Shown: positions 853 to 56,298, counted from the stretch's first letter. The stretch: DNA of 64,000 nucleotides from Betaproteobacteria bacterium (GCA_009693335.1 SHXK01000001.1:1246-65245); one strand, 5' to 3'. The notes: generated by a model from the letters alone, not told the origin. Program-made: numbers and translations.

Positions 853-880
853 TTTTTTCTCCTTACCGGTTGGTCCAACA

Positions 881-2110: not shown

Positions 2111-2111
2111 C

Positions 2112-3792: not shown

Positions 3793-4712
3793 GCGGCTTC
3801 CCCGACGATGTGCACTTCGGGCACCAAGCGGACCTCGGTTTTTTCCTCGACCTCCGCTTGCACCTGCAGGATCAAGCCTTCGATGTCGGCGGCGCTGGCC
3901 GCACCGCCCGGATTGACGATGAAGTTGGCGTGCTTCTCCGAGACACGGGCACCGCCGCGCTCGGCCCCTCTCAGTCCGCAGAACTGGATCAGTTTTGCCG
4001 CCGTCTTGCCTTCGGCCGGATTGCGGAACACGCTGCCGGCATTGGGCAACTGCAAGGGTTGCGTCGAGCGGCGCTTGCGCAGTAGCGCCTGCATGATGGC
4101 GCGCGATTCGTCCCGGTGGCCTTCGGGCAGCCTGAAATGCGCCGAAGCGAACCATTCGTCGCCGTCGCTGCTGGCATCGGCCTTCAACTCGCAGTGGCGA
4201 TAGCCGAATTCGAATTCTTCCCTGGCGCGGCGGCGCAACTGGCCATGCCGGTTGATGGTCACCACGCGCTCGACAATGTCCCAGGTCTCGCCGCCGTAGC
4301 AACCAGCATTGCCGGCGAGCGCGCCGCCGACGGTGCCGGGAATTCCGGTGAGGAACTCGGCGCTGCCCAGGTTGTTGTCGGCCGCGAAGCGCGCGACGCG
4401 CGGGCAGGCAACACCCGCTTCGGCATACAACAGCCCGTCTTCCATGCGCGAACGCTTGCTGGCGGCATGGGTCAAGATCACCGTGCCCGGCCAGCCGCCT
4501 TCGCGCACCAGCAGGTTGGAGCCCAAGCCGACGAACAGGATAGGCTCGGCCGCCGGCAACTGCCCCAGAAAGTTGGAGAGGTCCTCGAGATCCACCGGAG
4601 CGAAGCAGCGCTGCGCGGGGCCGCCCGCTTTCCAGCTCACATGCCACGACATCGGTTGGTCGCGCCGTAGTTCGCCGCGCAGACCCTGGAATTGGATCGT
4701 CTCTGTACTCAT
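3789..4712 (-). CDS. murB: UDP-N-acetylenolpyruvoylglucosamine reductase
   Basis: 307-aa ORF with an FAD-binding N-terminal half (LGSNLLV) and a C-terminal [14 protein letters not shown] segment typical of MurB. ATGA overlaps on both sides. Confidence 0.92.
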
Positions 4713-6166
4713 GACAGGCTCTTACGCATGGCAGAAGCAGCCATGTCGTTACCAATGGCAGAAGCAGCCATGTGCGCCGCCACGGTGCCGATCGAACCCG
4801 CGCCCATGCATAGCACCACATCGCCGTCGCGCGCCACCTGCCGGATGCCCTCCGCCATGCGGCCGAGGTCCTCGATAAACACCGGTTCCAGCTTGCCGGC
4901 GGAGCGCACGGCGCGCGCCAGGGATGGGCCGTCGGCGGCCGCGATCACCGGCTCGCCCGCCGCGTACACATCGGCGAGCACCAGCGCGTCCGCTGTTGAG
5001 AGCACCTTGACGAAGTCCTCGAACAGATCCCGCGTCCGGCTGTAGCGATGCGGCTGGAACGCCAGCACCAACCGGCGGCCGGGAAACGCGCCGCGCGCGG
5101 CCGCGATCGTCGCCGCCATCTCCGCGGGGTGGTGGCCGTAGTCGTCCACCAAAGTGAAACACCCACCACCGGGCTTGGTCGCATCCAGGGGGACTTCCCC
5201 ACAACGCTGGAAGCGCCTGCCCACGCCTCTGAATTCGGCCAGGGCTTTGACGATCGCTGGCTCCGGGATGCCCAGCTCCAGGCCGATGGCGATCGCCGCC
5301 AGCGAATTGAGCACGTTGTGGTGGCCGGGCAGGTTGAGGGTAACTTCCATCGGCGGCGCGCTGGCGTGAGGCATGCCGGCGCGCCACACCCGGAAGCGCA
5401 TCTGACCCGCGGCATGCTCGATGTCTACGGCGCGCACCATCGCTTCCGCGCCCGTACCGTAGGTCACCACCGGCTTGGAGACGAAGGGCAGGATCTCGCG
5501 CACATACGGGTCATCCGCGCACAACACCGCGCTGCCGTAGAAAGGCAGGTTCTGCAGGAACTGGACAAAAGCCTGCTTCAGCCGCGCGAAATCGTGCTGA
5601 TAGGTCTCCATGTGGTCGGCATCGATGTTGGTGACCACCGCGTGCACCGGCTGCAGGTGCAGGAAGCTCGCGTCCGACTCGTCGGCCTCGACGACGATGA
5701 AATCGCCCGCGCCCAGACGCGCATTCGAGCCCGCGGCGTTCAGCCTGCCGCCGATCACGAAGGTCGGGTCCATGCCGCCCTCGGCGAGGACGCTCGCCAC
5801 CAGGCTGGTGGTGGTGGTCTTGCCGTGGGTGCCGGCGATGGCGATGCCCTGCTTCAGGCGCATCAATTCGGCCAGCATCAGCGCACGCGGCACCACCGCG
5901 ACGCGCTTGGCGCGCGCGGCGGCCACCTCGGGGTTGTCGCCTTTCACCGCGGTCGACACCACCACGGCGTCGGCGCCTTCGATGTTGGCCTTGTCGTGCT
6001 TGATGATGATCTTCGCGCCCAACTGGGCCAGACGGCGCGTGGCGGTGTTCTCCGCCAAGTCCGAGCCGCTCACCTGGAAGCCCAGATTCACCAGCACTTC
6101 GGCGATGCCGCTCATTCCCGAGCCGCCGATGCCGACAAAATGTATGTGTCTGACCTTGTGCTTCAT
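4709..6166 (-). CDS. murC: UDP-N-acetylmuramate--L-alanine ligase
   Basis: Mur ligase with [17 protein letters not shown] and the [11 protein letters not shown]-loop. Start taken at [10 protein letters not shown] (ATG at 6166), which gives a 4-bp overlap with the murG stop. The track ORF begins 10 codons upstream. Confidence 0.92.
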
Positions 6167-7236
6167 CCGGGTTTTCCGAGCACGAGCGCCACGCAACGAT
6201 CGGCGACGACGCTTGCCGCCTCGGGTTTGCCGAGCGACCTTGCCTGCTCCGCCATGGCCAGCAGCGCCGGACGATCCAGCGAGCGGATCACCGCTGCCAG
6301 GCTCTGCGGCGTGAGACTTTCCTGTGGCAGCAATATCGCCGCGCCTGGCGCCGACAAAAAACGCGCATTAGCGCTCTGGTGGTCATCCACCGCGTGCGGG
6401 AACGGCACCAACACGCTGGCCATGCCGCCCGCCGAGAGCTCGGCGATGGTCATCGCACCGGCGCGGCAGATGACCAGGTCAGCTGCGGCGTAGCGCTGCG
6501 CCATGTCGTCGATGAACGCGAGCAGCTCGCCCTGGATGTTTTCTTGCGCGTAATTTTTTTTCAGGCTTGGCAAATGTTTCTCGCCGGACTGATGGACCAC
6601 CCGCGGCCGGTCGGCGACGGGAAAAAGAGCCAGGGCTCTGGGCACCACCTCGTTCAAAGCCTGCGCCCCCAGGCTGCCGCCCACCACCAGGACGCGCAGC
6701 GGCCCGCTCCTGCCGGCGTAACGCGCGGCGGGTGGCGCGATCGCGGCGATCTCCGCGCGCACCGGATTGCCGGTCCATTCGGCGTTCTTCAGCGCATCCG
6801 GAAACCCAGCCAGCGTCTTGTCGGCGAGGCCGGCGAGCACGCGGTTGGTGAATCCGGCGATGGCGTTTTGTTCGTGCACCACCAACGGCCGGGCCAGGAG
6901 CGAGGCCATCATGCCGCCGGGGAAAGCGACATAACCGCCCATGCCGAGCACCACGTCGGGCCGGATGCGGAAAATCGCGCTGGCACTTTGCCAGAAACCG
7001 ATCAGCAGCCTGAACGGCAGCAGCAGCTTTGCCGCCAGGCCTTTGCCGCGCAGCGCCGCGGCGCGGATCCACGCCACCGGATAGCCGCGCGCCGGCACCA
7101 GCCGCTCCTCGATGCCGCCGCGCGCGCCCATCCACACCACCTTCCAGCCACGGTCGCGTATCTCGTCGGCCACCGCCAGCCCGGGAAACACGTGCCCGCC
7201 GGTGCCGCCCGCCATGATGAGGATGGTTTTATTCAT
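6163..7236 (-). CDS. murG: UDP-GlcNAc:lipid I N-acetylglucosaminyltransferase MurG
   Basis: 357-aa ORF; N-terminal [17 protein letters not shown] motif of GT28 MurG. Confidence 0.95.
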
Positions 7237-7266
7237 GCACTGTCACGCGTTGGGTGAGGAACGCAC

Positions 7267-8448
7267 TCATGCGTTGAGCCCCCGCGCCAGCTGGCGGTTT
7301 TCCCAGTCGATGCGGATCAGCACCGCGATCGCCACGCAGTTCACGATCAGGCTCGAACCGCCGAAGCTCATCAGCGGCAGGGTCAGTCCCTTGGTGGGCA
7401 GCAGGCCCACGTTGACGCCCATGTTGACGAACGTCTGAAAGCCGATCCAGATGCCGATGCCCTGCGCCAGGAGCGCGGCGAAATTGCGCTCGCGCAGCGC
7501 CGCTTGGCGGCCGATGGCGAAAGCGCGCAGCACGACCCAGACGAACAGCGCGATCACACCCAAAACGCCCAGCAGCCCGAGTTCCTCGGCGATCACCGCC
7601 AGCAGGAAATCGGTGTGCGCCTCGGGCAGGTAGAGCAGCTTCTCGACGCTGGCGCCGAGGCCGACGCCCAGCCATTCGCCGCGGCCAAAAGCGATCAGCG
7701 CGTGCGACAACTGGTAGCCCTTGCCGTAGGCATCGGACCAGGGATCCATGAAGCCGAAGATGCGCTGCATGCGGTATTGCGACGAGAGCACCAGCAGCGC
7801 GAAACCCGTGCCGAGCATCGCCAGCAGTGCGCCGAAGTGCCGGCCGCTCATGCCGCCAAGGAACAGCACGCCGAAGGCGGTCATCGCGACTACCACCAGG
7901 GCGCCGAAATCCGGTTCACACAGCAGCAGCCACGCCACCACCAGCATCACCCCCAGCATCGGCAGCAGCCCCTGGCGGAAATTTTTCAGCACCGCGTGCT
8001 TGCGCACCGTGTAGTCGGCCGCATACAGCACCACCGCCAGTTTCATCAACTCCGAGGGCTGCATGGTGAGCATCCCCAGCTTCAACCAGCGCTGAGCGCC
8101 ATTGACCTCGCGACCGATGCCTGGAATCAGCACCAGCACCAACAGCACCATGCAGGCGGCAAAAAACCACGGCGCGGCTTTCTGCCAGAGGCGCAGCGGC
8201 ACCAGGAACACCGCGGTCGCGGTGCTTAGCGCGAGTACCAGATACAGGCTGTGCCGCAGGAGGAAGTAAGCGGGATTGTGGCCCGAGTTGCGGCCCGCTT
8301 CGGCGCTCGCAATCGACGACGAATACACCATCACCAGCCCGAGCGAGACCAGCAGCAGCGCCGCCCAGGCGAGCGAACGGTCGTATTCCACCGCCGCAGC
8401 GCCGGCGGTTCTCAGCTTGCTGCCTTGTCCAAATACGAAGCTCGCCAT
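7267..8448 (-). CDS. ftsW: Lipid II flippase/peptidoglycan polymerase FtsW (SEDS family)
   Basis: 393-aa polytopic membrane ORF with the C-terminal [14 protein letters not shown] motif. Sits between murD and murG. Confidence 0.93.
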
Positions 8449-9833
8449 CAGTCTTGCAGCCCCTTAACCGCCGCAGCAAAAACCTCTCCGCGGTGCCTGT
8501 AGTCGCGAAACATGTCGAAGCTCGCACAGGCGGGCGAGAGCAGCACCGCGTCGCCCGCTGCGGCGATGCGGGCGGCGCGCGCGACGGCCGCCTCGAGGGA
8601 AACACAACGCTCCAGCGGCACGCCGGCCAGGCTGAGCGCCCGCTCGATCAGCGCGGCGTCACGACCGATGAGAAGGACCTGCTTGGCGTGCTGCTGGAGG
8701 GCGGACGCCAGCGGCGCGAAATTTTGACCCTTGCCTACTCCCCCCAGAATCAGGATCGTTGGTTTCGACATTCCCTTCAGCGCCGCCACCGTGGCGCCGA
8801 CATTGGTGCCCTTGGAGTCGTCCAGCCATTCGACGCCACCATGCAATGCCACGCGCTGCATGCGGTGCGGCAGGCCCTGGAAGCTGCGCAAGCCGGGCGC
8901 CAACGCGGTGAGCGGCACGCCCGCGAACTGGGCGAGCGCGCAGGCCGCCAGCGCATTGGCCACGTTGTGCGCGCCGGCGAGCGGCAGTTCTGCCACCCCG
9001 AGGATGGGTTCGGCGCCGCGCGCCAGCCACTCTCGGCCATCGAGGTTCAAGATGCCGAAATCCTCTGGCATGGGCGGCGCATCCAGGCCAAAAGTCACTT
9101 GGGCGCGGCCCGGCAGCGACAGCGCCATGGAGGCCGCATCGCCGCGATTAAGGATCTGCACACCGTCACCGGCGAAAATACGCGCCTTGACGCCTACGTA
9201 CTCAGCGAGCCCGGCATAGCGGTCAAGATGGTCTTCCGAGAGGTTGAGCATTGCCGCCGCGACCGGCGCCAGCGACCAGGTCGTCTCGAGTTGGTAGCTG
9301 GAGAGTTCCAGCACCCACGCGGCAGGCGGATGTTTTCTTTGCAGAAGCGCCTCGAGCGCCGGAGGGGAAATGTTTCCCGCAACTTCGCAGTCAACGCCGG
9401 CCGCCCGGAGCAGGTGGCCAGTGAGTGCGGTGACTGTGCTTTTGCCATTGGTGCCGGTAATCGCGACGACCTTCTGTCTCACGGCCCAGGCGAACAACTC
9501 GATATCGCCAACGATGGGAATATCCCGGGCGCGCGCCGTTTGCACCAGTTCTTCCTGCAAGGACAAGCCCGGGCTGAGGCAAAGCAGATCGATATCTTTC
9601 AGCAATGAAGACTTGAAGGTGCCGGTATGCAGCTCGCCGGAAAATTCTTTCTGCCGCGGTGGCGTGGCGCGCGTGTCGGCGGCGCGCACCATGCCGCCCT
9701 CACTCTTGACCCAGTTCGCCACCGACAGCCCGGTGTCGCCCAGACCGAGAACCAATACGCGCTTGCCGACCAGCGCCACGGCTTGCGGGCGGGCGAGCGT
9801 GCTTAAGAACGGCGGGCGCATATCCATGCTCAC
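8448..9833 (-). CDS. murD: UDP-N-acetylmuramoylalanine--D-glutamate ligase
   Basis: 461-aa ORF with [12 protein letters not shown] at the N-terminus and the [10 protein letters not shown]-loop. 1-nt overlap with the ftsW start. Confidence 0.93.
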
Positions 9834-10921
9834 CGCAACTTCAGCGTCGAGAGACCAAACAACACCAGCATCATGGTGATGATCCAGAAGCGCACCACCA
9901 CCTGGGATTCCTTCCAGCCTTCCAGCTCATAGTGGTGGTGCAGCGGCGCCATGCGAAAAATGCGCTTGCCACCGGTGGCCTTGAAGTAGATCACCTGAAT
10001 CATCACCGACAGGGTTTCGGCGACGAATACGCCGCCCATGATGAACAGCACGATTTCCTGTCGCACAATCACCGCGACGGTGCCCAGCGCGGCGCCCAGC
10101 GCCAGCGCGCCGACGTCCCCCATGAACACTTCGGCTGGATAGGCGTTGAACCAGAGGAATCCCAGGCCCGCGCCCACCAGCGCGCCGCAGAACACCGCCA
10201 GTTCGCCCGCGCCGGCGACGTAAGGTACGCCGAGGTATTTGGAAAACACGGCGTGGCCAGCGACGTAGGCAAAGATGCCGAGCGCGCCGCCCACCATAAC
10301 GGTGGGCATGATCGCCAGGCCGTCCAGCCCGTCGGTCAGGTTCACCGCGTTGGAAGTGCCGACGATGACCAAATAAGTGAGCACGATGAAACCGATCGCA
10401 CCTAGCGGGTAGGCGACGAACTTGAAGAACGGCACGATCAGGGTATTTAGCGCCGGGGTGCTCTGCGCCAGCCAGCCCAGATAGCAGGCTGCGGCCAGTC
10501 CGACCACCGACTGCCAGGCGAACTTCGCCTTCGCTGGCAGCCCCTTGGGGTTGCGATGCACCACCTTGCGGTAGTCATCGATCCAGCCGATGGTGCCGAA
10601 AGCAAGCGTCACCAGCAGCACTACCCAGAGGTAGCGATTGCCCAGGTCGCCCCACAGCAGCGTGGTGATGGCAATCGACAGCAGTATCAGCGCCCCGCCC
10701 ATGGTAGGGGTGCCAGTCTTGGTGAGGTGCGACTTGGGACCGTCATCGCGCACCATCTGGCCGATTTTGTAGGCGGCCAGCTTGCGGATCACATAAGGCC
10801 CGAGGATCAGCGAGATCGCCAGCGCAGTGAGGCAGGCCAGCACGGCGCGCAGCGTGAGGTAACTGAACACATTGAACAGCCGTACGTCCTTGGCCAGCCA
10901 TTGGGCAAGTTCGAGCAGCAT
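9830..10921 (-). CDS. mraY: Phospho-N-acetylmuramoyl-pentapeptide transferase
   Basis: 363-aa polytopic membrane ORF with the [13 protein letters not shown] motif of the MraY/WecA family. Confidence 0.95.
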
Positions 10922-12291
10922 CAGTGCACCGTCTCTTTCTCACCGCTCAATTCGGCGACCACGCGTTCCATGCGCATGAAACGCGAGCCTTTGACGAGAA
11001 TGGTTTTGGCTTCTATCTTTCTTTGCGCCAGCTTTTCCACATTGTCAAAATGCTCGGCGCCCTCGCCGAATGCATGCACGGCGTCCAGCGTCGCCGACCC
11101 CACAGCGAGGAGTAGGGCGACGCCCTTTTCCTTCGCGTACCTGCCCACTTCGGCGTGAAATTCGGGGCCCTGCGTTCCGACTTCGCCCATATCGCCCAGC
11201 ACCAGCGCGGTGGGACCCGGGCAGGACGCCAGCACCTCGATGGCGGCGCGCACCGAATCCGGATTCGCGTTGTAGCTGTCGTCGATCAAGGTGGCGCCGG
11301 CGGCGGTCTGCTTCACCTGCAACCGGCCGGTGGTGGGCCGGAACGCGGCCAGGCCCACGCCAATGTCAGCCGCTGGAATACCGGCGGCATACGCACAGGC
11401 CGCAGCGGCGAGCGCATTGCGCACGTTGTGCAGTCCGGGGATGGCGAGCGTCGCTTGCGCTACGCCGGAGGGTGTCTTGAGGACGATTTCGCTCTCCAGC
11501 GCTTTCAACACGTAGCGGCCGCTCACGTCACCGGTCTCGATGCCGAACTCGATGCGCTGGCGTTTGCCGGCTTTCTCCCGGAACACCCCACTCATCGGAT
11601 CCTCGGCATTCAGCACCGCAATGCCATCGTCCGGCAGCGCATCGAAAACGTTGGCGTTCTCGGCCGCCGCCGCCGCCACGCTACCCATGAACTCCAGATG
11701 TTCGCGCTGAGCGTTGGTGACGAGCGCGATGGTCGGCGCAGTGATCGCCGCCAGCGGCGCGATTTCGCCGGGATGATTCATGCCTATCTCAATGGCGCAG
11801 AAACGGTGCGTCGGCCGCATGCGCAGCAAGGTCACCGGCACGCCGATATCCCCGTTCAAGCTGCCCCGCGTGGCCAGCACCTGCGCCTCGCCGGCATGCG
11901 CGCGCAGGATCGAGGCCAGCATTTCCTTGGTGGTGGTCTTGCCGTTCGAACCGGTGATGGCGATCACCACGGGCGCAAAACGCAGACGCCAGTGCCGGCC
12001 CAGGCGTCCGAGCGCGCGCCGCGTATCGTCAGCGACCAGCAGCGGCAATGGTGCGGCGGAGGCCGAGTAGCGCGCATCCACCAGTGCCGCCACCGCGCCA
12101 CGTTCCTGCGCCATGGCGAGGAAATCATGGCCGTCGTAGTGTTCGCCACGGATGGCCACGAACAACTGGCCTTGGCCTAGGGTACGCGTGTCGGTGGAAA
12201 GGTCGTGGAAACGCGTCGTCTGGCCACCGTCCGCGCCGCCGCCCAACAAACGGGCGGCCATGGCACCGGCAGCTTCGGCGAGGCTCATCAT
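10921..12291 (-). CDS. murF: UDP-MurNAc-tripeptide--D-alanyl-D-alanine ligase
   Basis: 456-aa Mur ligase with the [14 protein letters not shown]-loop. Overlaps mraY by 1 nt and murE by 4 nt. Confidence 0.93.
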
Positions 12292-13739
12292 CGCTGCCCC
12301 CGGCGAACGAGCGCCGTGTCGGCAATCGCCGCATCAGAGAACGGCTGTTTGCGAGCGCCGATCTCCTGGGTGTGCTCATGGCCTTTGCCCGCAATCAGCA
12401 CCACATCGGCGTCAGCAGCTGCTGCAATCGCGGCTTCGATGGCTTGGGCGCGATCGACCTCCAGCACGCACTGGCCCGCAATACCGCTGCGGATCTGCTC
12501 CAAGATGGCCAGCGGATCTTCGCCACGCGGGTTGTCGGAGGTCAGCACCACACCATCGGCGAGCGCTGCCGCGACCCTGCCCATCACCGGGCGCTTGGCC
12601 GCATCGCGTCCGCCGCCGGCGCCGAACACCACGACCAGCCGCCCGCCGCGCGCCTGCGCCACCGGGCGCAGCGAACGCAGGACCTGCTCGAGGGCATCAG
12701 GGGTATGCGCGAAATCCACCACCACCAGCGGGCGACCTGCTTGCGCCCCGATTCTCTGCATGCGGCCCGGGATCGCAGGCAAGGTCTCGAGGAGCTTCAC
12801 ACCTTCCTCGAAGCCTATGCCTTTCGCCAACAGGCAGCCCAGCACGCCGAGCGCATTAGCGATGTTGAAGCGCCCGAGCTGCGGGATGCTGGCGGTGGCC
12901 TCGCCCCAGCTGGAGCGGATGCGTATGCGTTCAGCCTCCGGCTCGCTGGCGCAGAGAAACTCTTTGGACTCTCCGGCAAGCTTGCCGGCCTCCCCAGCAA
13001 ACTTGCCGGAAGAAGAAATGCCATAGCCAATCGTGCGCACCCCGCGTGCGGCCAGGCTTTGCGCCAGCTGCACACCGAAGGCGTCGTCCAGATTCAGCAC
13101 CGCAGTTTGCAGGCCGGGCATATCGAACAAGCGCGCCTTGGCCTGCCCGTAAGCTGCCATGCTGCCGTGGTAGTCGAGATGGTCGTGCGTGAGGTTGGTA
13201 AAGAGGGCGCAGTCAAAGGCCACAGCGTGCACGCGCCCCTGCTCGAGGCCGTGCGAGGACACTTCCATCGCCACTGCGCTGGCGCCGGCGGACTTGAATT
13301 CCGCCAACCAGCGATGCACCTCGAGCGCATCCGGCGTGGTATTCGAATGCTCGCCAAGAGAACCTGGAAAACCGCTGCCCAGAGTGCCGATCACGCCGGT
13401 CCTGATTTCTTTCAAAGACAGAACATGGGCCAGCCAGTGCGAGCACGAGGTCTTGCCGTTGGTACCGGTGATGCCGCACATCCACAGCGATTCGGACGGC
13501 CGGCCGTAGAACGCATGCGCCAGGTAACCGGCCTGCGCTTTCAGGTCCTTGACGCCGGCGTTTGGTATTTTCCAGCCGTCGTTCCAGGCAAAGCCTTCGC
13601 TCTCCCAGAGGACCGCCGCGCAGCCGCGCTCCATCGCCTGTGCGACGTAGTGCCGGCCGTCGGCCGCCTCGCCCGGCCAGGCGAAGAAAGCCGCAGCCGG
13701 TGCCGCGCGTCGGCTGTCGGAGGTCAGACGTTCGATCAC
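12288..13739 (-). CDS. murE: UDP-MurNAc-L-Ala-D-Glu--2,6-diaminopimelate ligase
   Basis: 483-aa ORF with GITGTNGKTS. The track start at 13739 is a GTG only 5 codons before the conserved TSDSR motif, so the true start may be upstream (see finding on 13739-13792). The 3' end is firm. Confidence 0.88.
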   Translation of the reverse strand: MIERLTSDSRRAAPAAAFFAWPGEAADGRHYVAQAMERGCAAVLWESEGFAWNDGWKIPNAGVKDLKAQAGYLAHAFYGRPSESLWMCGITGTNGKTSCSHWLAHVLSLKEIRTGVIGTLGSGFPGSLGEHSNTTPDALEVHRWLAEFKSAGASAVAMEVSSHGLEQGRVHAVAFDCALFTNLTHDHLDYHGSMAAYGQAKARLFDMPGLQTAVLNLDDAFGVQLAQSLAARGVRTIGYGISSSGKFAGEAGKLAGESKEFLCASEPEAERIRIRSSWGEATASIPQLGRFNIANALGVLGCLLAKGIGFEEGVKLLETLPAIPGRMQRIGAQAGRPLVVVDFAHTPDALEQVLRSLRPVAQARGGRLVVVFGAGGGRDAAKRPVMGRVAAALADGVVLTSDNPRGEDPLAILEQIRSGIAGQCVLEVDRAQAIEAAIAAAADADVVLIAGKGHEHTQEIGARKQPFSDAAIADTALVRRGQR

Positions 13740-13815
13740 CGCCCCTTGGCTCGCCAGCAGCGTGAACAGGTCGCCGACCAGAGGGCCTCCTTGAGGACAT
13801 GGAAAATTTCACGCA

Positions 13816-15543
13816 TCAGCTGTTCTCCTTCGCTACTTCGCCCTCGCCCGGCATCTCGATGGGCGACAGCGGCGCGTCATAGGACACCCCGAGCAGGCGC
13901 AGCGCGCCCTGCATGACCTGGGAAAACACCGGCGCCGCCACCTGGCCGCCGTAGTACTGGCCGGCCGAGGGTTCATCCAGCATGACGGCGATCACCAGGC
14001 GTGGATCTGACACCGGCGCGAAACCAACGAATGACGAGATGTACTTGCGCGCCGCGTAGCTGCCGTTTTCCAGCTTGTGCGCGGTGCCGGTCTTGCCGCC
14101 CACACGCCAGCCGACGATGCGCGCTTGCGGCGCGGTGCCGCCTGGCTGCACGGCGGCTTCCAACATGTCGCGCAGCGCGCGCGCCACTTCCGGCGAGAAC
14201 ACGCGCTTGCCTTCGGTGGGCACGCCGGTCTTCACCAGCGACAGGGGCGCAAGCTCGCCGTCGCGCGCGAACACGGTATAGGCGCGCGCCAGCTGGATCA
14301 GGCTGACCGAGATGCCGTGGCCGTAGGCCATGGTCGCTTGCTCCACCGGACGCCAGGTTTTCGCTTCGCGTACGCGGCCGTTAACCTCGCCGGGAAACCC
14401 CAGCCCTGGCGCATTGCCGAAGCCCACGCGCTTGAACATGCCGTGCATCTCCTCGCGCGGCATCGAGAGCGCGATCTTCGCCGCGCCGACATTGGAGGAT
14501 TTCTGGATCACCTGCGCCACGCTCATCGCGCCGCCCGGATGGGCATCGTGGATGGTGCGGCCACCGATCGTCAGCGTGCCAGGCGCGGTCTGGATCACGG
14601 TCTGCGGCGTGACCAACCCCAGCTCCATGGCGAGCCCGACCGTAAAGGGCTTCAGCGTGGAGCCGGGCTCAAAAGTATCGGTGATCACGCGGTTGCGCAG
14701 TTGCGCGCCGGTCATCCGTGCGCGGTTGTTCGGGTTGTAGGTGGGCAGGTTGGCGAGTGCCAGCACTTCGCCCGTGCGCACCTCGAGCACCACGATCGCG
14801 CCGGCCTTGGCCTTGTGCGCTTCCACCGCTGCCTTCAGCGCACCGAAAGCCAGATTCTGGATCTTGCCGTCGATGGCGAGAGCCAGGTCGCGCCCGTCCT
14901 GCGCAGGGCGAATCAATTCGACATCCTCGACGATGCGTTGGCGCCGGTCCTGGATCACGCGGCGGCTACCGACGGCGCCAGCGAGTTGCGCCTGCTGGGC
15001 AAGCTCGATGCCTTCCTGGCCCACGCCATCCACGCTGGTGAAGCCGATCAGGTGCGCCATGCTCTCGCCGCCCGGGTAGTAGCGGCGGGATTCGTTTTTC
15101 TGCTGCAGGCCCGGGATGCCCAGCTCGACGACGCGCGCTGCGGTCGCGGGGGGAAGCTGGCGCTTCAGATAGACGTATTTGCGCTCTGCTTCCGCGAGCT
15201 TGCGCGCAAGCTCGTGCGGCTCTAGCGACAGCAGCGCGGCCAAACTGGCCAGTTGCGCGGGAGTCGCATGCACGCCCCCCGGGATCACCTCCACCGCTTT
15301 CACCGGCGTCGAGATGGCGAGCGCCTCGCCGTTGCGGTCCACGATACGCCCGCGTGTGGCCGGCACGTCCAGTACGCGCGTGTAGCGCGCTTCGCCCTTG
15401 CCCTGCAGGAAACCGGTGTTCATCGACTGCAGGTAGACCGAGCGGCCGGCCAACACCACGAATGCGGCCAGCAGCACGACGAGCGTCAGGCGCGCACGCC
15501 ACACTGGCAGCCGAATCATCATTGGCACGCTGGCGGCGCTCAC
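13816..15543 (-). CDS. ftsI: Peptidoglycan D,D-transpeptidase FtsI (PBP3)
   Basis: 575-aa ORF with an N-terminal membrane anchor and the class B PBP motifs STLKPF (SxxK), SSN and KTGT. Confidence 0.93.
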   Translation of the reverse strand: MSAASVPMMIRLPVWRARLTLVVLLAAFVVLAGRSVYLQSMNTGFLQGKGEARYTRVLDVPATRGRIVDRNGEALAISTPVKAVEVIPGGVHATPAQLASLAALLSLEPHELARKLAEAERKYVYLKRQLPPATAARVVELGIPGLQQKNESRRYYPGGESMAHLIGFTSVDGVGQEGIELAQQAQLAGAVGSRRVIQDRRQRIVEDVELIRPAQDGRDLALAIDGKIQNLAFGALKAAVEAHKAKAGAIVVLEVRTGEVLALANLPTYNPNNRARMTGAQLRNRVITDTFEPGSTLKPFTVGLAMELGLVTPQTVIQTAPGTLTIGGRTIHDAHPGGAMSVAQVIQKSSNVGAAKIALSMPREEMHGMFKRVGFGNAPGLGFPGEVNGRVREAKTWRPVEQATMAYGHGISVSLIQLARAYTVFARDGELAPLSLVKTGVPTEGKRVFSPEVARALRDMLEAAVQPGGTAPQARIVGWRVGGKTGTAHKLENGSYAARKYISSFVGFAPVSDPRLVIAVMLDEPSAGQYYGGQVAAPVFSQVMQGALRLLGVSYDAPLSPIEMPGEGEVAKENS

Positions 15544-15818
15544 GGCCTGGCCTCACCCTTGACTGCAAGCATGCGCACCCGGCGTGGGTCGGGCGCGCGC
15601 ATGGCGAGCGTTCCGGTGGCGATCTTCTCGACGCGCGCATGCAGGCCCCAGGTGCTCGATTCGAGCTGCAGCTGGCCGAACTCGACCTCCAGCGCGCGGG
15701 CCCGCTCCTGCTCGCGCTCCAACCCGGTAAACAGCTTCCTCGACTCGTGTTGAGAAGTCACGAGCCCGAGCGCGCAGACGATGAGAACCAGGAGGAGGAG
15801 GAGGCTCAGCTTCGCCAC
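15540..15818 (-). CDS. ftsL: Cell division protein FtsL
   Basis: 92-aa ORF with one TM helix ([17 protein letters not shown]) followed by a coiled-coil-like region. 4-bp overlap with ftsI. Assignment relies on position between rsmH and ftsI. Confidence 0.85.
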
Positions 15819-16825
15819 GCGTCGGGCCCGTGTGCGGAAAATGCACGCTGCAAAATCGATGCATCAAGAGTTGCGTTGCTACGTTCAGCGGCGCGCAGGG
15901 TCGCGCTGCGCGCACGCGGGTTGGCCGCGACTTCGGCCTCCGAGGCGCGCACTGCCTTGCCCAGGATTCTGAGCGGCGGTTGTGGCAGATCCCGGGCACG
16001 AATCGGCAAATCCGCGGGCAGGTTGTCCGCGGCGCAGGCGCGCAGAAAGCGCTTCACCAGCCGGTCCTCCAATGAATGAAAAGCGATCACCACCAGCCTG
16101 GCCTCGGGGGCGAGCTGCGCGGTGGCCTGCGGCAACATCATCGTGATTTCCTCAAGCTCCTGATTGACGAGAATCCGAAGAGCCTGAAAGGTGCGCGTCG
16201 CCGGATTCTGGCCAGCCTCGCGTGTGCGGACCGCCGTAGCCACGACAGCGGCAAGTTGCTCGGTGCGGAGGAGTGGCTCGCGTGCCCGAGCAGCAACAAT
16301 CGCCTTTGCAACCTGTTTAGCAAACCGTTCTTCACCATAGCTGGCGATCGCCTCCCGGATTTGTTGTTCTGTGGCGCTGGCCAGCCAATCGGCGGCAGAA
16401 ATACCGCGGCTCGGATCCATGCGCATGTCGAGCGGCCCGTCGGTGCGGAACGAGAAGCCGCGCGTTGGGTCTTCGATTTGCGGCGACGACACGCCGAGAT
16501 CCGCCAGCACGCCATGGACCAGGGACGCACCCAGCCGCTTCAGATGCGGGGCTAGCACCTGCGCCAGCTCGCTGAAGGGTGCGTGCTCGATGACGAAGCG
16601 CGGGTCCTTGATCTCGCGCGCGGCCGCCACCGCCGCAGGATCGCGATCGAGCGCGATCAGCCGGCCCGCAGGCCCGAGACGCTCCAGAATTGCGCGGCTG
16701 TGGCCCCCGCGACCGAAAGTGGCATCTACGTAGATGCCATCGGCACGGATGGCGAGGGCGGCGAGCGCCTCTGCGAGAAGGACAGGGCGATGCGCAGTGG
16801 ACTTGCCGATCGGTGCTGCGCTCAT
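15806..16825 (-). CDS. rsmH: 16S rRNA (cytosine1402-N4)-methyltransferase RsmH (MraW)
   Basis: 339-aa ORF with [13 protein letters not shown]...[12 protein letters not shown], the SAM-binding signature of RsmH. Confidence 0.95.
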
Positions 16826-16840
16826 CGTTGGCGCCCGCCG

Positions 16841-17299
16841 TCACAGCGAGAAGTCCTCCATGCCCGGAGGCGGCGAACCAGAAACAGACAGCGCGGCGGC
16901 GAGCTTGGCGTTCCAGACGCCAGCATCCCAAAGCTCGAAGTAGTGACCCTGGCCGACCAGCATCGTCTCGCGCTCGAGCTTGGCGTGCAGCCTCAAGCCG
17001 CTCGACACCAGCACCCGGCCCGAGGCGTCGGGGGTGATGTGCTCCTCGAAGCCCAGCAGCAAGCGCTTCCACCAGCTCGCTTGCGGATGAAAACTGGGGA
17101 ATTTCTCGACTTGGGAACGCACACGCTCCCAGGACAATTCCGGATAAATGAGCGCACAACCGTCGGGATGCGCACTCAGCACCAGCGTCTTGCTGGTGGC
17201 CACCAGTGCGTCGCGATGGCGCGTCGGAATCGCCAAACGGCCCTTGGCGTCCAGAGTGATGACCGAAGCGCCGTGGAACGCACTGCCCGTGCTGCCCAT
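16841..17299 (-). CDS. mraZ: Transcriptional regulator MraZ
   Basis: Duplicated SpoVT/AbrB-like MraZ sequence (GASVITLDAKGRLAIPTRHRDAL). Start placed at the first ATG (17299), preceded by GGAGGGGGAGAAG. The track start at 17335 is a TTG 12 codons upstream. Confidence 0.9.
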   Translation of the reverse strand: MGSTGSAFHGASVITLDAKGRLAIPTRHRDALVATSKTLVLSAHPDGCALIYPELSWERVRSQVEKFPSFHPQASWWKRLLLGFEEHITPDASGRVLVSSGLRLHAKLERETMLVGQGHYFELWDAGVWNAKLAAALSVSGSPPPGMEDFSL

Positions 17300-17362
17300 C
17301 TTCTCCCCCTCCGACTCGGATTGGTCAAAACCCAAGGCCCAACATCGTTATAGGCTTATTAA

Positions 17363-29184: not shown

Positions 29185-30315
29185 TCAGGATTTCTTGCTG
29201 ACCTCGATACCGGCCGCGCGGGCGAGATCCCGGTGCACCCGCACCACCCGCTCCACCTCACCCTTGGCGGGAAAGCGCTCGTAGAAGCCATCGTCGCGGA
29301 ACATCTTGCCCATCTCCGCCCACGGCTTGAGCCGCTCTTCCCAGCGTTCCAGGCGCCCGGCCTCGGGAACATTGTCCTGGCGCGCCAGATCGGCGCATAC
29401 CCGGATCATCGCCTTGATGGTGACCGGCCGGGTAACCATGTAGCCGTCCTTGCCCCAGACTGAATCGCCGAACACGTTTTTCGCCGCCCGTAAGAAATCG
29501 CGCACGATGCCGTAGTGGCGCGGCACTTCCTTGGCGCTGCCGCCCGCGACCTGAATCGAGCGCCACTTGCCGCGCACCCAGCGGTGCAGTTCGTTGAACA
29601 GCTCGGCCTGCAGCACCCACTTGTCGCGCTGGCTGCGGCCGCCCAAGCGGTTGATGCGGTAGCGCAGCGGGCTGTCGCCTTCGCCGTAGAGCTTTTGCAC
29701 CAGGCGCGCGGCGAATTTGCGGTCGGGCGCCGCCCAGGACACCTGCTCGTAGAGATCGATCAGATGGCTCTTGTTGATGCGCGTCGGCGTGGAATTGATG
29801 ATGACGAACATCTCGGCAGCGAAGTCTTCGCTGCGACCGTCAAAAATGATGCAGGGCACGCTGATGGTGGCGGCGTCCTGCGGCCGCTCCAGCATGTAGA
29901 AATGCAGCGCGGCGAGGCGGTGCTGGCCGTCGATGATCAGGAATTTGCTGGCCGGCTCCGACAGATGCCCCGAACCATCGCCGTCGCCCCCGCCGTTGGA
30001 ACGGAAATTCAGCTTCTCGCTGGTGTAGAGCAGCACCGTACCGGGGATCGCCGGCTGCGACACCGCGGTTTCATAGAAATTGGTGAGCTGGCGCACCTTG
30101 GCGCGCGACAGGCCGCGCTGGAAAGCGCCGTCGGTGCGCTCGATTTTGGCGATGAATTGGGCGACATCGTCATCCTGCGAGATGCGCGCCGCGGGAATCT
30201 CCTCGCCCTCGCCATAGAAACGGCTGATGAAGCGCACCCTGGCGAGCAGATTCTTCGCCTGGTACCCGGCAAAATAGAAAATCCCGTCCTTCTGGCGAAT
30301 CTGTGTCGCGTGCAT
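29185..30315 (-). CDS. DGQHR domain-containing protein (DndB-like, ParB/sulfiredoxin fold)
   Basis: 376-aa ORF with the diagnostic FLIIDGQHRLAAL motif and the FVIINSTPTRINKSHLIDL segment. GGGAGAGG Shine-Dalgarno upstream of the ATG at 30315. Confidence 0.8.
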   Translation of the reverse strand: MHATQIRQKDGIFYFAGYQAKNLLARVRFISRFYGEGEEIPAARISQDDDVAQFIAKIERTDGAFQRGLSRAKVRQLTNFYETAVSQPAIPGTVLLYTSEKLNFRSNGGGDGDGSGHLSEPASKFLIIDGQHRLAALHFYMLERPQDAATISVPCIIFDGRSEDFAAEMFVIINSTPTRINKSHLIDLYEQVSWAAPDRKFAARLVQKLYGEGDSPLRYRINRLGGRSQRDKWVLQAELFNELHRWVRGKWRSIQVAGGSAKEVPRHYGIVRDFLRAAKNVFGDSVWGKDGYMVTRPVTIKAMIRVCADLARQDNVPEAGRLERWEERLKPWAEMGKMFRDDGFYERFPAKGEVERVVRVHRDLARAAGIEVSKKS

Positions 30316-30393
30316 CGCCTCTCCCGTTGCGCCAGCCCGCTCTTCCGGCGGACCGTGCCGGGCGGAAATATACCCGGGATTAGAATCCTACGC

Positions 30394-31419
30394 ATGAAAC
30401 TCTCCGTCCTCGACCAATCCCCCATCATCTCCGGCCACAGCGCCGCGCAGGCGATCGAAGAAACCATCAAGCTCGCGCGCCGCGCCGATGAACTCGGCTA
30501 CCACCGCTACTGGCTCGCCGAGCACCACGCCATCGCCGCGCTCGCCGACCCCTGCCCTGAAATCCTGCTCGCGCGCCTGGGCGCGGAGACCAAGCGGATC
30601 CGGGTGGGCACGGGTGGGGTATTGCTGCCCTACTACAGCGCTTTCAAGGTTGCTGAAATTTTCCGCATGCTGGAAGCCCTCTACCCCGGGCGCATCGATC
30701 TGGGCATCGGGCGCGCGCCGGGTGGCGACCAGCGCACCGCGCGTGCCGTAGGGGGTGGGCACTTCCCGGATGCAGAACAATTCCCGCAACAGGTCTGGGA
30801 ACTGATCGGCTACCTGGACGGCACCCTGCCCGAGGATCACCCCAACCGCCGCGTACGCGTCCAGCCCGAAGGTCGCAGCGCGCCGGAGCTCTGGTTGCTC
30901 GGCTCCTCGGATTACAGCGGCCTGCTGGCGGCGCAGTTGGGGGTGCGTTTCTCGTTCGCCCATTTCATCAACGCTCAGGGCGGCGACCTGGTGACGCGCG
31001 CCTACCAGGAACGTTTCCAGCCCCGCGATGCGCACAGCAGCGGCCCCACGCCGCGCGAAGCCCAGCCGCACAGCGCCCTTTGCTGCTTCGTCATCTGTGC
31101 CGCCACCGACGACGAAGCCGAGCGCCGTGCGCGCGTCGTCGACTTGCGACGCCTGCACATGGCCCTCAACCAGGATCTGCCCGTGCCGACCCTGGCCGAA
31201 GCCGAACAACGCGCTTTCTCCAAGGAAGAACTGCAGTACATCCGCGGCCAGCGCCCGCGCGCGATCATCGGCAGCCCGCAGACCTGCCGGGACAAACTGC
31301 TCGATCTGGCCGGGAAATTTTCTGCCGACGAATTGATGGTGCTGACGATTACCGGCGACTACGCCACGCGGCTGGAATCCTACGAACTGCTAGCACAAGC
31401 CTTTGCTCTGGCAGGCTGA
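30394..31419 (+). CDS. Luciferase-like (LLM class, group 1/YhbW-like) flavin-dependent oxidoreductase
   Basis: The real gene is the last 341 codons (MKLSVLDQSPIISGHSAAQAIEETIKLARRADELGYHRYWLAEHH) of the 634-aa track ORF. Confidence 0.88.
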   Translation: MKLSVLDQSPIISGHSAAQAIEETIKLARRADELGYHRYWLAEHHAIAALADPCPEILLARLGAETKRIRVGTGGVLLPYYSAFKVAEIFRMLEALYPGRIDLGIGRAPGGDQRTARAVGGGHFPDAEQFPQQVWELIGYLDGTLPEDHPNRRVRVQPEGRSAPELWLLGSSDYSGLLAAQLGVRFSFAHFINAQGGDLVTRAYQERFQPRDAHSSGPTPREAQPHSALCCFVICAATDDEAERRARVVDLRRLHMALNQDLPVPTLAEAEQRAFSKEELQYIRGQRPRAIIGSPQTCRDKLLDLAGKFSADELMVLTITGDYATRLESYELLAQAFALAG

Positions 31420-31426
31420 TTTACGT

Positions 31427-31463
31427 CCTTGAAATCTCGAATCATATATTCGATATTTCAAGG
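31427..31463. repeat. AT-rich near-perfect palindrome (16-bp arms, 5-nt centre)
   Basis: CCTTGAAATCTCGAAT-CATAT-ATTCGATATTTCAAGG, with 15 of 16 arm positions complementary. It fills most of the 56-bp gap between the LLM stop (31419) and the ATPase ATG (31476). Confidence 0.9.
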
Positions 31464-31475
31464 TACAATCTGGCC

Positions 31476-32633
31476 ATGGATCGCCCCCGCCATCTCGCTG
31501 CCGTCGAAAAGGCACTGCGCCGGGTGCCTGTGGTGGCTCTCCTCGGCCCACGGCAGATTGGCAAGACGACGCTCGCGCTGACGCTCGCGCGGCGCCACGG
31601 GCGCCCCGCAACCCGCTTCGACCTTGAGGATCCCGAGGACCTGCGCCAGCTGGCGGACGCCAAGCTCGCATTGAGCGGCCTGCGCGGCCTGGTCGTACTC
31701 GATGAAATCCAGCGCCGCCCCGAGCTGTTCCCGGTGCTGCGGGTGCTTGCCGACCGGCGGCCCGCGCCCGCCCGCTTCCTGGTTCTTGGCAGCGCCTCTC
31801 CAGAACTGCTCCGGCAAAGTTCCGAATCGCTGGCCGGCCGCATCCACTACCACGAACTGACGCCGTTCGGGCCTGATGAAACGGGCGCCGGGCGCGCGCA
31901 ACGCTTGTGGCAACGCGGCGGCTTTCCACGCGCCTTTCTCGCCCGCAGCGACGCCGAATGCGCGGCGTGGCGACGCGATTTCATACGCACTTATCTCGAG
32001 CGGGACGTGCCACAGCTCGGCCTACGGCTCGCTGCGGAGACCCTTTATCGCTTCTGGAGCATGCTGGCCCATTACCACGGGCAGATCTGGGGATCGAGCG
32101 AATTCGCCCGATCTTTCGGCATGAGCGACGTCACGGTGCGGCGCTACCTCGACCTGCTCAGCTCTCTGTTCCTCGTGCGCCAGCTAGCGCCGTGGCACGA
32201 GAACCTGGGCAAGAGGCTGGTGAAATCGCCCAAGGTCTACATCCGCGATACCGGTCTGCTGCACCAGCTTCTCGGCCTCGAAACACAGGCTGCGCTGCTG
32301 CGGCACCCGAAACTCGGCGCCTCATGGGAAGGCTACGCGCTCGCTGCCGTCGAAACTCGTCTCGGCGCGCGGCGCGGAGAATCCTTCTTCTACGCGACCC
32401 ACGGCGGCGCAGAACTCGATCTGCTCGTGGTACGCGGCCGCCGCAGACTGGGGTTCGAATTCAAGCGCACCGTGGCCCCCGAGCTCACCAAGTCCATGCG
32501 CATCGCGCTCGCCGACCTGCGCCTCGAGCGTCTCGACGTGATTCACGCCGGCGAACACAGCTTCCCGCTTGCCGAGCGGGTGCGAGCGGTACCACTCGCC
32601 CGCATCCTGCAGGACATCCGGCCCATTGACTGA
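31476..32633 (+). CDS. AAA-type ATPase with C-terminal DUF4143-like region (COG1373-type)
   Basis: Real start is MDRPRHLAAVEKAL (ATG at 31476) within the 517-aa track ORF. Walker A is LLGPRQIGKTT and Walker B is LVVLDEIQ. The C-terminal half resembles DUF4143 family proteins. Confidence 0.8.
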   Translation: MDRPRHLAAVEKALRRVPVVALLGPRQIGKTTLALTLARRHGRPATRFDLEDPEDLRQLADAKLALSGLRGLVVLDEIQRRPELFPVLRVLADRRPAPARFLVLGSASPELLRQSSESLAGRIHYHELTPFGPDETGAGRAQRLWQRGGFPRAFLARSDAECAAWRRDFIRTYLERDVPQLGLRLAAETLYRFWSMLAHYHGQIWGSSEFARSFGMSDVTVRRYLDLLSSLFLVRQLAPWHENLGKRLVKSPKVYIRDTGLLHQLLGLETQAALLRHPKLGASWEGYALAAVETRLGARRGESFFYATHGGAELDLLVVRGRRRLGFEFKRTVAPELTKSMRIALADLRLERLDVIHAGEHSFPLAERVRAVPLARILQDIRPID

Positions 32634-33669: not shown

Positions 33670-34320
33670 TCAGTCCTTCTCGTAGTTCTCCAGCAGATTG
33701 ACGATCTCCGCGTGGCCGCGCTCCCGCGCCACTGCGATCGGACGCTTGCCCGCGCGGTTGCGCTGCCGCGCATCCAGACCGAGCGCAAGGAAGACACTCA
33801 CCATTTCCACATAGCCGCCGTCTGCAGCCGCGTGCAGCAGCGTGTTGCCCTGCAAGTCTGCCACCTTCGGATCCGCGCCGCGCTCCAGTAAATGCCGCGC
33901 CGTCTGCGGATTGCCCGTCATCACCGCCCACTGCAGGATGGATTCGCCATCGTCGTTGCGCAGTTTCGGATCCGCCTTGGCCTCGAGCAGCAGATCCACG
34001 AACCAGGGGTCCACATGCAGCGCCGCCACATGCAGGGGGGTCTCGCTGTTCTTTGATCGCGCATTCACCGGCGCCCCGGCTTTCACCAGCATCGCCGCCA
34101 GCTCCTTCATCCCTTTCTCGATCGCCCGGTGTAGCGGCGTCTCCTGCTCCGCATTGCGCGCATCCAGTTTCACCCCGCCCCGCGTCACGATCCCCTCGGC
34201 CACCAGCGGCTTGTCCTCCTCGATCGCCTCGAATAGCCGCACCTCCGGCGCATCCGTCACCTGCGCGATCGCGCTTGCGGCGCCAAGAAAGAAAAGTAAG
34301 CAGGCGAGAAATAACCTCAT
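33670..34320 (-). CDS. Secreted ankyrin-repeat protein
   Basis: Real start is MRLFLACLLFFLGAASAIAQV (ATG at 34320) within the 410-aa track ORF. A signal peptide is followed by several ankyrin repeats (ETPLHRAIEKG, ETPLHVAA, NTLLHAAADGG). ATGA overlap with the upstream gene. Confidence 0.85.
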   Translation of the reverse strand: MRLFLACLLFFLGAASAIAQVTDAPEVRLFEAIEEDKPLVAEGIVTRGGVKLDARNAEQETPLHRAIEKGMKELAAMLVKAGAPVNARSKNSETPLHVAALHVDPWFVDLLLEAKADPKLRNDDGESILQWAVMTGNPQTARHLLERGADPKVADLQGNTLLHAAADGGYVEMVSVFLALGLDARQRNRAGKRPIAVARERGHAEIVNLLENYEKD

Positions 34321-55968: not shown

Positions 55969-56298
55969 ATGCGCGCACCCGCCTCAACTACCGCTTCAGC
56001 TTGTGCCTGGCGTTGTTTTGCACTGGCCCTGGTGCTGGGCCTTGGCGCCTGCGCTGGAGTGCGCTGGCACAAACCTGGCGGCGACGACGCCGCACTGGCG
56101 TAGGATCTGGCGACCTGCCGCAAGCAGGCTGAGGACCAGTTCCGCGGGGCTGGTAGCCTCGGGCCGCCCATCGCCACCGACCCCCGCTTTGGCGCTGCCT
56201 TCAGCCCCAGCCAGGCCGACCTGCGGATGCAGGAAAGCCAGGCGCTGGGCCGTTGCATGCGCGGCAAGGGCTACGGCCTGGTGCCCGTCGAAAAATAA
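55969..56298 (+). pseudogene. Small lipoprotein gene interrupted by an in-frame TAG at 56101-56103
   Basis: Own translation: MRAPASTTASACAWRCFALALVLGLGAC (lipobox LGAC) AGVRWHKPGGDDAALA-stop-DLATCRKQAEDQF...GRCMRGKGYGLVPVEK-TAA. Both halves share one frame with strongly GC-biased third positions. Neither half passes the ORF-track length cut-off. Confidence 0.55.

Follow-up and report, generated by a model that had tools for sequence, protein, structure and literature searches.

A solitary DGQHR-domain protein with core-gene-like conservation in uncultured Burkholderiales, and its independence from an adjacent oxidoreductase and ATPase

We analysed a stretch of 64,000 nucleotides from a Betaproteobacteria bacterium (GCA_009693335.1, SHXK01000001.1:1246-65245; hereafter the window), with a focus on three neighbouring genes at positions 29,185 to 32,633. 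They encode a DGQHR-domain protein, a luciferase-like flavin oxidoreductase (LLM) and an ATPase of the AAA_14/DUF4143 type. A preliminary description of the window had proposed that the DGQHR protein is either a domesticated DNA-binding regulator or part of an undescribed module that combines a ParB-fold protein, a flavoenzyme and an ATPase. Our results point, with reasonable but not high confidence, to three adjacent genes that function independently of each other, of which the DGQHR protein stands alone and is most likely a nucleoside triphosphate (NTP)-gated dimer that binds DNA and serves a housekeeping or regulatory function, the LLM is a syntenic neighbour, and the ATPase is an accessory cassette. 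The locus has the following layout:

29185..30315, minus strand: gene of the DGQHR-domain protein, 376 residues (open reading frame (ORF) and profile matches)
30316..30393: divergent intergenic region of 78 bp between the start of the DGQHR gene and the start of the LLM gene
30394..31419, plus strand: LLM oxidoreductase of the MsnO8 family (group 1; TIGR03558)
31427..31469, plus strand: palindrome followed by a -10-like TACAAT (palindrome scan and comparison of homologues)
31476..32633, plus strand: AAA_14 ATPase fused to DUF4143 (Pfam; PADLOC PDC-S01)

The LLM gene diverges from the DGQHR gene, and the 78-bp distance given earlier was exact; the LLM and ATPase genes are 56 bp apart. The earlier assignment of the LLM to group 1 was likewise borne out by its match to the MsnO8/group-1 profile TIGR03558 (376.6 bits versus a cut-off of 166.95). 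The guanine-plus-cytosine (GC) contents of the DGQHR, LLM and ATPase genes were 0.638, 0.664 and 0.674, respectively, and their GC contents at third codon positions (0.78-0.85) equalled those of the neighbouring genes. Hence, the composition of the three genes was as native-like as had been described.

Conservation of the gene neighbourhood was investigated in two sets of loci. For the DGQHR gene, one genome per GTDB species was scanned, and at least 552 of these genomes contained a relative. The best 80 of them (L006-L085) were combined with five metagenome loci (L001-L005) to a set of 85 loci, which were compared by tblastn with the genes of the window and by de novo clustering of ORFs. For the ATPase, the set consisted of homologues in 80 metagenomic loci (L089-L168; 54-83% identity, 38-71% GC). 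The 10-kb flanks of the DGQHR gene lacked the DUF4143 ATPase gene in all 85 loci, and none of the 80 ATPase loci contained a relative of the LLM, the DGQHR protein or the TctC protein. The LLM gene was present in approximately 17 loci, all in the clade closest to the window (clade A, at least 76% identity), where it was located 0.7-7 kb upstream of the DGQHR gene and usually separated from it by an MFS transporter gene, a DUF1223 gene or both. In clades B and C, an LLM gene within 10 kb was absent. The suggested co-occurrence of LLM and DUF4143-ATPase genes with DGQHR genes was thus not found in the gene-neighbourhood analysis, and the three-gene module is refuted because the homologues of the three genes lack conserved synteny.

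It is extremely improbable, therefore, that the three genes work together as an undescribed module, for example in defence or DNA modification. Their physical adjacency, with gaps of only 78 and 56 bp, occurred identically on five contigs of one sample, but these represent the same strain. The ATPase does match the PADLOC candidate defence protein PDC-S01, yet it has its own conserved promoter/operator. Moreover, the predicted promoters of the three genes are separate, the DGQHR gene lies on the opposite strand, and even within the closest clade the LLM gene is mostly one or two genes away.

The relatives also account for the present arrangement. In L003, L008, L018, L022 and others, the gene order is LLM (minus strand), MFS transporter (minus), DUF1223 (plus) and DGQHR (plus). 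The window contains neither the MFS transporter gene nor the DUF1223 gene, and the LLM gene adjoins the DGQHR gene here because these two genes were lost. A deletion that ended some 10 nt before the -10 box of the DGQHR gene appears to have created the present divergent gap. Furthermore, the ATPase gene and a TctC gene are extra in the window compared to L003-L005, where the gene of an ankyrin protein follows the LLM gene. The LLM is an ordinary flavin oxidoreductase, a neighbour through local synteny and not a partner.

Several lines of evidence place the 376-residue protein in the DGQHR family. Both sequence segments from which its membership had been proposed, KFLIIDGQHRLAAL and MFVIINSTPTRINKSHLIDL, are present in the translation of the minus-strand ORF, and the profile matches were significant. 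The protein scored 108.9 bits with TIGR03187 (DGQHR; cut-off 58.85) over residues 3-310, and 34.6 bits with PF14072 (DndB; cut-off 29.1), for which residues 62-192 alone were aligned. The DGQHR domain is defined by a QR pair, a near-invariant DGQHR pentapeptide and an FxxxN motif (PMC4619093), and all three were found. In an alignment of 90 orthologues, 55 positions were invariant, including S215-P216 and most of the residues in the following motifs, which are all encoded on the minus strand:

30115..30123, minus strand: F65-Q66-R67, containing the QR pair; invariant in the 90 orthologues
29908..29931, minus strand: D129-G-Q-H-R133-L-A-A136, containing the DGQHR pentapeptide; D129-R133 invariant (n = 90), A136 nearly so
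29794..29808, minus strand: F170-V-I-I-N174, the FxxxN motif; F170 and N174 invariant (n = 90)
29233..29250, minus strand: R356-x4-H361, resembling the Rx4-6H motif of HEPN proteins, a lead only; R356 invariant, H361 in 90% (n = 90)

The residues G130-x-x-R133-x-x-A136 read as GxxRxxA, the nucleotide-binding motif of ParB box II, and the corresponding motif of DpdB has been likened to the ParB motif as well (PMC10164549). Profiles and motifs together place the protein firmly within the DGQHR domain family. In contrast, a Pfam match to ParBc or to a helix-turn-helix (HTH) domain was not found in the protein, and parA was not found among its neighbours, which sets it apart from canonical ParB of the ParABS system.

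Matches to the more specific profiles were far weaker. The best of these was DpdB (NF041060), with 46.3 bits versus an equivalog cut-off of 300 (E 2.6e-12; residues 55-315); the PADLOC profile of DpdB gave an E-value of 1.2e-12. The profile DGQHR_dnd_1 reached 41.6 bits versus 450, TIGR03233 (DndB) 18.1 bits versus an equivalog cut-off of 328, and the PADLOC profile of DndB 18.8 bits. The genomic associations of these proteins were not found either. Neither a dndBCDE operon, as expected for DndB, nor adjacent dpdA and dpdC, as expected for DpdB, was detected in the scans of the window and the 85 loci, and in none of the 85 loci did the 10-kb flanks of the DGQHR gene contain a dnd, ssp or dpd enzyme gene (dndCDE, dndFGH, dpdA, dpdC). 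Because both the equivalog scores and the genomic associations fall short, the protein is, as judged from its sequence and context, not an orthologue of DndB or DpdB.

The gene content of the window was taken from precomputed Pfam matches for approximately 22.0-40.3 kb and from Pfam scans of 24 further ORFs, which together cover a subset of the ORFs in the window. The scanned ORFs encoded metabolic enzymes, TctC binding proteins, HSP90, an ankyrin protein and MraZ of the dcw (division and cell wall) cluster. They contained no dnd or dpd genes, in line with the earlier remark that no such partner is recognisable in the 64 kb. MraZ was the only transcription factor among them, and the claim that the metabolic region has no other transcription factor therefore stands for these ORFs.

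The DGQHR gene was widely distributed within one lineage. More than 5149 relatives were found in the databases, and the top 120 were all 80-93% identical to the protein of the window. The best 80 species genomes, with 65-91% identity, were overwhelmingly metagenome-assembled genomes (MAGs) of uncultured Burkholderiales/Betaproteobacteria. Within the closest clade, the identity to the DGQHR protein of the window was 76-91%, equal to that of the Band_7/stomatin protein and on average 5-20 points above that of the CoA-transferase, glyoxalase, glutathione S-transferase, 2-hydroxyacid dehydrogenase, LLM, NfeD and FAA-hydrolase-like proteins. Orthologues were not found on 72,556 plasmids, which yielded four domain-level matches of 35% identity in Zymomonas, or on 2.9 million viral contigs, which yielded 14 matches over partial stretches (24-49% identity). 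Among 1.84 billion cluster representatives at 50% identity, only 613 matched at E ≤1e-3, and the full-length members of the family among them were as little as 44% identical. A different DGQHR family, which is also solitary, follows at approximately 28-33% identity. Hence, the DGQHR gene behaves as a vertically inherited, core-gene-like gene within its lineage.

At several loci, the labels of the MAGs were inconsistent with the shared synteny. Genes with 77-81% identity occurred in Burkholderiales synteny in MAGs labelled as Enterobacteriaceae, Streptomyces, Clostridia or Bordetella, and a group with 65-67% identity was labelled as Verrucomicrobia, Polyangiaceae and Nitrospiraceae, which may reflect mis-binning or real inter-phylum transfer. 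These labels were not used to argue for transfer between phyla.

The conservation bears on the proposition that the DGQHR protein is a regulatory or accessory subunit of a Dnd/Ssp phosphorothioation system or a Dpd 7-deazaguanine system whose enzymes lie elsewhere in the genome. The DGQHR proteins characterised so far, DndB and DpdB, all serve DNA-modification systems, some of these systems have an unlinked dndA, and the best specific profile match of the protein, over most of its length at residues 55-315, was to DpdB. We nevertheless consider this proposition rather unlikely. The match scores were far below the equivalog cut-offs, and the modification enzymes were missing within 10 kb in 85 loci that represent three different contexts, as well as from the window as scanned. 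Moreover, at least 552 species carry this subfamily in highly conserved form, while dnd and dpd systems are patchy and laterally transferred, and the nearest outgroup family of DGQHR proteins (28% identity) is likewise solitary.

Synteny around the DGQHR gene was maintained within clades but drifted between clades (85 loci). In clade A, the context consisted of DUF1223 and CoA-transferase genes, and DUF1223 was the commonest immediate upstream neighbour, on the same strand and approximately 100 nt away, in at least 27 loci. In clade B (72-76% identity), the DGQHR gene was located between the pyruvate kinase gene and pgk-gap-tkt. In clade C (67-71% identity), it followed DUF1800/DUF1501 genes and preceded a RidA-like gene, or was located near ompR/envZ-like genes. 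When 1049 ORFs from 86 loci were clustered de novo, no neighbour proved to be universally conserved; the most frequent were CoA-transferase III in 36 loci, at mixed positions and on both strands, and DUF1223 in 27 loci, in clade A only. The preliminary description's view of an orphan protein was thus upheld: the protein is solitary, strongly conserved and chromosomal, has housekeeping neighbours, and scores far below the cut-offs of DndB and DpdB.

The metabolic neighbours in every clade could suggest that the protein is a ParB/Srx-fold enzyme that acts on a protein or small molecule, similar to sulfiredoxin or SerK, and is tied to the surrounding metabolism. The Srx fold is suited to ATP-dependent reactions on substrates other than DNA, and matches among the predicted viral structures of BFVD include a protein annotated as sulfiredoxin. 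This explanation is improbable, however. No particular metabolic gene was kept adjacent across the clades, and the cysteine signature of sulfiredoxin is absent, with DGQHR in place of FGGCHR. Furthermore, the basic C-terminal domain (pI 10.3) and the similarity to DpdB over the full length point to nucleic acid.

The structure of the protein was predicted with AlphaFold2 (predicted local distance difference test (pLDDT) 82.3, predicted template-modelling score 0.77). The model comprises a mixed alpha/beta N-terminal domain (N-domain; residues ~1-195), which would correspond to a ParB/Srx-like NTPase domain, and an all-helical C-terminal domain (C-domain; residues ~196-376). The C-domain is strongly basic, with a pI of 10.3 and 38 lysines and arginines in 181 residues. 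The model matched BFVD structures at E-values of 1e-4 to 1e-10, and these were annotated as DNA-sulfur-modification-associated, GmrSD_N/DUF262, ParB-like nuclease and sulfiredoxin. Sequence searches of the PDB, with the protein and with the family profile, gave no match even at E 10. When the C-domain alone (pLDDT 86.7) was compared with PDB folds, the best E-value was 3.2, and therefore an assignment as HTH, HEPN or nuclease is not possible. A Pfam scan of the C-domain at E 10 returned nothing relevant and no HEPN match.

The annotations of the fold matches raise the question of whether the protein is a stand-alone effector, either a ParB-type nuclease or NTP-degrading enzyme, or an RNase of the HEPN type, comparable to the GmrSD/SspE/BrxU class or to a toxin. 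With GmrSD, BrxU and SspE (DUF262/GmrSD-N) it shares equivalent QR, DGQ(Q/H)R and FxxxN motifs and probably the ParB/Srx fold, BrxU and SspE are among its fold matches, and it has a weak match to GmrSD_N (19.3 bits). Roles in the degradation of NTP have been suggested for DndB (PMC10853773), and a fusion of a ParB domain to HEPN, with a HEPN signature, was once proposed for the same protein (PMC3632139). HEPN domains have an Rx4-6H motif where the last helix of a four-helix bundle begins; in the DGQHR protein, the invariant R356 and the H361 present in 90% of the orthologues form an Rx4H motif within the last helix (residues 353-367). All the same, we regard an effector of this kind as improbable. 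The GmrSD_N score is below the cut-off of 33.2, a C-terminal HNH/DUF1524 nuclease domain was not found by Pfam, and the C-domain does not contain the EHxxP nicking motif of SspE. Because several deeper members of the family have another residue in place of H361 and the C-domain has no HEPN profile match, nor a HEPN fold match, the R-x4-H motif stays a lead. In addition, the gene lies outside any defence island in a non-defence context, its conservation is core-gene-like, and no antitoxin-like partner is kept alongside.

The upstream region of the DGQHR gene contains two candidate signals:

30367-30375, minus strand: -10-like box GGGTATATT, flanked by a CCGGG/CCCGG inverted repeat
30318-30325, minus strand: Shine-Dalgarno (SD) sequence GGGAGAGG of the DGQHR gene

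The SD sequence is strong. The box GGGTATATT was kept in orthologues of clades A and B, approximately 45-55 nt before the start codon, whatever the upstream gene. In clade C, GCTAGAAT was found in place of GGGTATATT; overall, the boxes were located approximately 45-95 nt upstream of the start. The DGQHR gene is thus predicted to be transcribed from its own conserved promoter. An inverted repeat of at least 4 bp flanked the box in 19 of 35 loci versus 14% of control positions. In clades A and B the repeat often read CGGG...CCCG, and a single variant, CGGC...GCCG, was compensatory.

By eye, the part of the leader that follows the -10 box shows GC-rich hairpins, but these were no more stable than shuffled sequence. 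A structured 5' leader was rejected as an RNA element: the 54 leaders that were folded had a mean z of -0.58 versus shuffled sequences, and only five were below -2. A comparison of 28.5-33 kb with Rfam gave nothing at or near the gathering score.

We infer that the DGQHR protein is an NTP-gated, DNA-binding dimer because its architecture is shared with DpdB and DndB and because the motifs of the NTP site are invariant. DpdB is a homodimeric, DNA-stimulated ATPase, and its C-domains have been modelled to enclose a positively charged tunnel of the size of DNA (PMC10164549). DndB is an ATP-modulated, DNA-binding repressor, and a DndB-like protein binds both ATP and GTP (bioRxiv 10.1101/2025.10.10.680097). 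By analogy, the N-domain of the DGQHR protein, with its QR pair, DGQHR pentapeptide (GxxRxxA) and FxxxN motif, would bind NTP, the basic helical C-domain would contact DNA, and the homodimer would be gated by NTP. A housekeeping or regulatory role in an uncultured Burkholderiales lineage, rather than a role in defence, is probable because the protein is solitary, ubiquitous in the lineage and slowly evolving. It could act as a lineage-specific regulator, as a nucleoid-associated factor, or as an ATPase that partners an unlinked enzyme.

Several points weigh against this interpretation. Binding of NTP and DNA in this subfamily is an argument by analogy with DpdB and DndB. The fold matches in the PDB were weak (E 0.08 for PadC and approximately 0.8 for BrxU and SspE), and the fold search revealed neither an HTH nor another established DNA-binding fold in the C-domain. 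The ParB/Srx fold includes enzymes that do not act on DNA, such as sulfiredoxin and a serine kinase, and hence a protein or small-molecule substrate is possible. The search for dnd, ssp and dpd partners covered the scanned ORFs of the window and 10-kb flanks in the 85 loci. Moreover, the inverted repeat that flanks the -10 box hints only weakly at an operator, so that autoregulation of the DGQHR gene is a lead rather than a result.

A more specific possibility, which we put forward tentatively, is that a DpdB/DndB-like NTPase was domesticated as a core chromosomal, NTP-gated DNA clamp in a large radiation of uncultured Burkholderiales. Such a clamp might serve as a lineage-specific nucleoid-associated or global regulator, or as the ATPase that partners an unlinked base-exchange or modification enzyme with a housekeeping role, for example of the TGT family.

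Among known systems, the protein resembles DpdB in its length and in its two domains, a ParB-like NTPase domain with DGQ(H/Q)R and a basic alpha-helical C-domain without EHxxP, and PadC is the top structural neighbour of both. Unlike DpdB, however, it is encoded by a conserved chromosomal gene without dpdA or dpdC nearby, and not in a mobile restriction-modification island. It shares the QR pair, the DGQHR pentapeptide and the FxxxN motif with DndB, and its score with the Pfam DndB profile is above the gathering score, but its match to TIGR03233 is only 18 versus 328 bits and its gene lacks dndCDE and dndFGH in the scanned window and the 85 loci. Orphan proteins with the ParB-CTPase fold have been surveyed (bioRxiv 10.1101/2025.10.10.680097), and the DGQHR protein is similar in that it, too, would be a ParB-fold protein that stands alone and is not part of a parAB operon. 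It differs in that it has no HTH or ParB C-terminal domain, and that survey, as far as it was read, does not describe the DGQHR subfamily. Hence, the protein represents an uncharacterised, solitary and core-gene-like DGQHR subfamily, which in architecture is nearest to DpdB or DndB.

The third gene of the locus encodes a different type of protein. As had been noted from its Walker motifs, it is an ATPase of the AAA_14/DUF4143 type, with 82.1 bits for AAA_14 (cut-off 27), 136.3 bits for DUF4143 (cut-off 28.1), and an E-value of 1.8e-84 for the PADLOC candidate PDC-S01. It contains the following motifs:

31545-31568, plus strand: Walker A, GPRQIGKT
31692-31706, plus strand: Walker B, VVLDE
32412-32465, plus strand: E313-x-D315...E328-x-K330, of the PD-(D/E)XK type

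The residues G24/K30/T32, D76/E77 and E313/D315/E328/K330 were each at least 95% conserved among 77 homologues. DUF4143 (COG1373) has been placed in the PD-(D/E)XK superfamily (PMC3424549). Since the PD-(D/E)XK-type signature is intact, the protein is an ATPase-nuclease fusion rather than a plain ATPase. Homologues were present in 372 plasmid records, of which 146 were conjugative. The protein agrees with COG1373/PDC-S01 in both Pfam domains, the Walker A and B motifs and the PD-(D/E)XK residues, but its gene is located between housekeeping genes, outside a recognisable defence island. We know of no established function for the COG1373/AAA_14-DUF4143 family.

The large AT-rich palindrome reported upstream of the ATPase gene was found with arms of 16 nt at 31427-31442 and 31448-31463, which are 94% complementary and separated by a loop of 5 nt. 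The -10-like TACAAT (31464-31469) follows directly after the palindrome, 6 nt before the ATG of the ATPase gene. A homologous palindrome was located upstream of 61 of 74 ATPase homologues, versus 11 of 1600 control windows, with the consensus aCCTTGAAAatTCggTTGACAncaCCGAntTTTCAAGG-TAnnnT and a start codon approximately 6 nt later. A TTGACA-like -35 element was recognisable in the loop of 24 of 75 sequences, and an SD-like sequence was present in only five of 75. In this layout, a sigma-70 promoter is placed within the palindrome, the right arm forms the spacer, and the start codon lies where transcription should begin. This layout suggests that the gene is autoregulated and leaderless. We regard the palindrome as the putative, family-specific promoter/operator of the ATPase gene, whose mRNA is probably leaderless. 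The ATPase is a self-contained, accessory ATPase-nuclease cassette that is found beside the DGQHR gene in this genome only.

Some further features of the window were observed. The minus strand of approximately 1-17335 contains a complete-looking dcw cluster, which is followed by metabolic genes. MraZ was confirmed at 16841-17335, and the sizes of the ORFs downstream of it fit ftsI-murE-murF-mraY-murD-ftsW-murG-murC-ddl-ftsQ-ftsA-ftsZ, an assignment made from size and order alone. Because of the dcw cluster, the window is part of the core chromosome. Ankyrin proteins are uncommon among free-living bacteria. The window encodes an ankyrin-repeat protein of 216 residues (33670-34320, minus strand; Ank_2, 118 bits) with an apparent N-terminal signal sequence, as judged by eye; its gene overlaps the end of the gene of a 961-residue FAD-binding/CCG oxidase by 4 bp, and was kept in several related loci (cluster c28). 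An ORF of 796 residues (56271-58661, minus strand) has an Oxidored_FMN domain restricted to residues 397-728. Its N-terminal ~396 residues have no Pfam match, which indicates either an over-called start or an extra domain.

With the three-gene module removed as a false lead, what is left is the apparent domestication of a defence-associated NTPase scaffold. The palindromic promoter/operator and the probably leaderless transcripts of the ATPase offer a handle on the widespread, uncharacterised family of COG1373-type defence candidates. The characterised DGQHR proteins, DndB and DpdB, are accessory parts of mobile DNA-modification or defence systems, whereas the subfamily described here is solitary and chromosomal. 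Its conservation, which over hundreds of species is like that of the best-conserved neighbouring housekeeping gene, suggests that the DGQHR NTPase scaffold has come to serve a core cellular task. If the domesticated clamp proves true, the DGQHR branch of the ParB/Srx superfamily would for the first time be linked to a housekeeping role. The subfamily is thus a tractable candidate for NTP-gated ParB-fold switches outside chromosome segregation.

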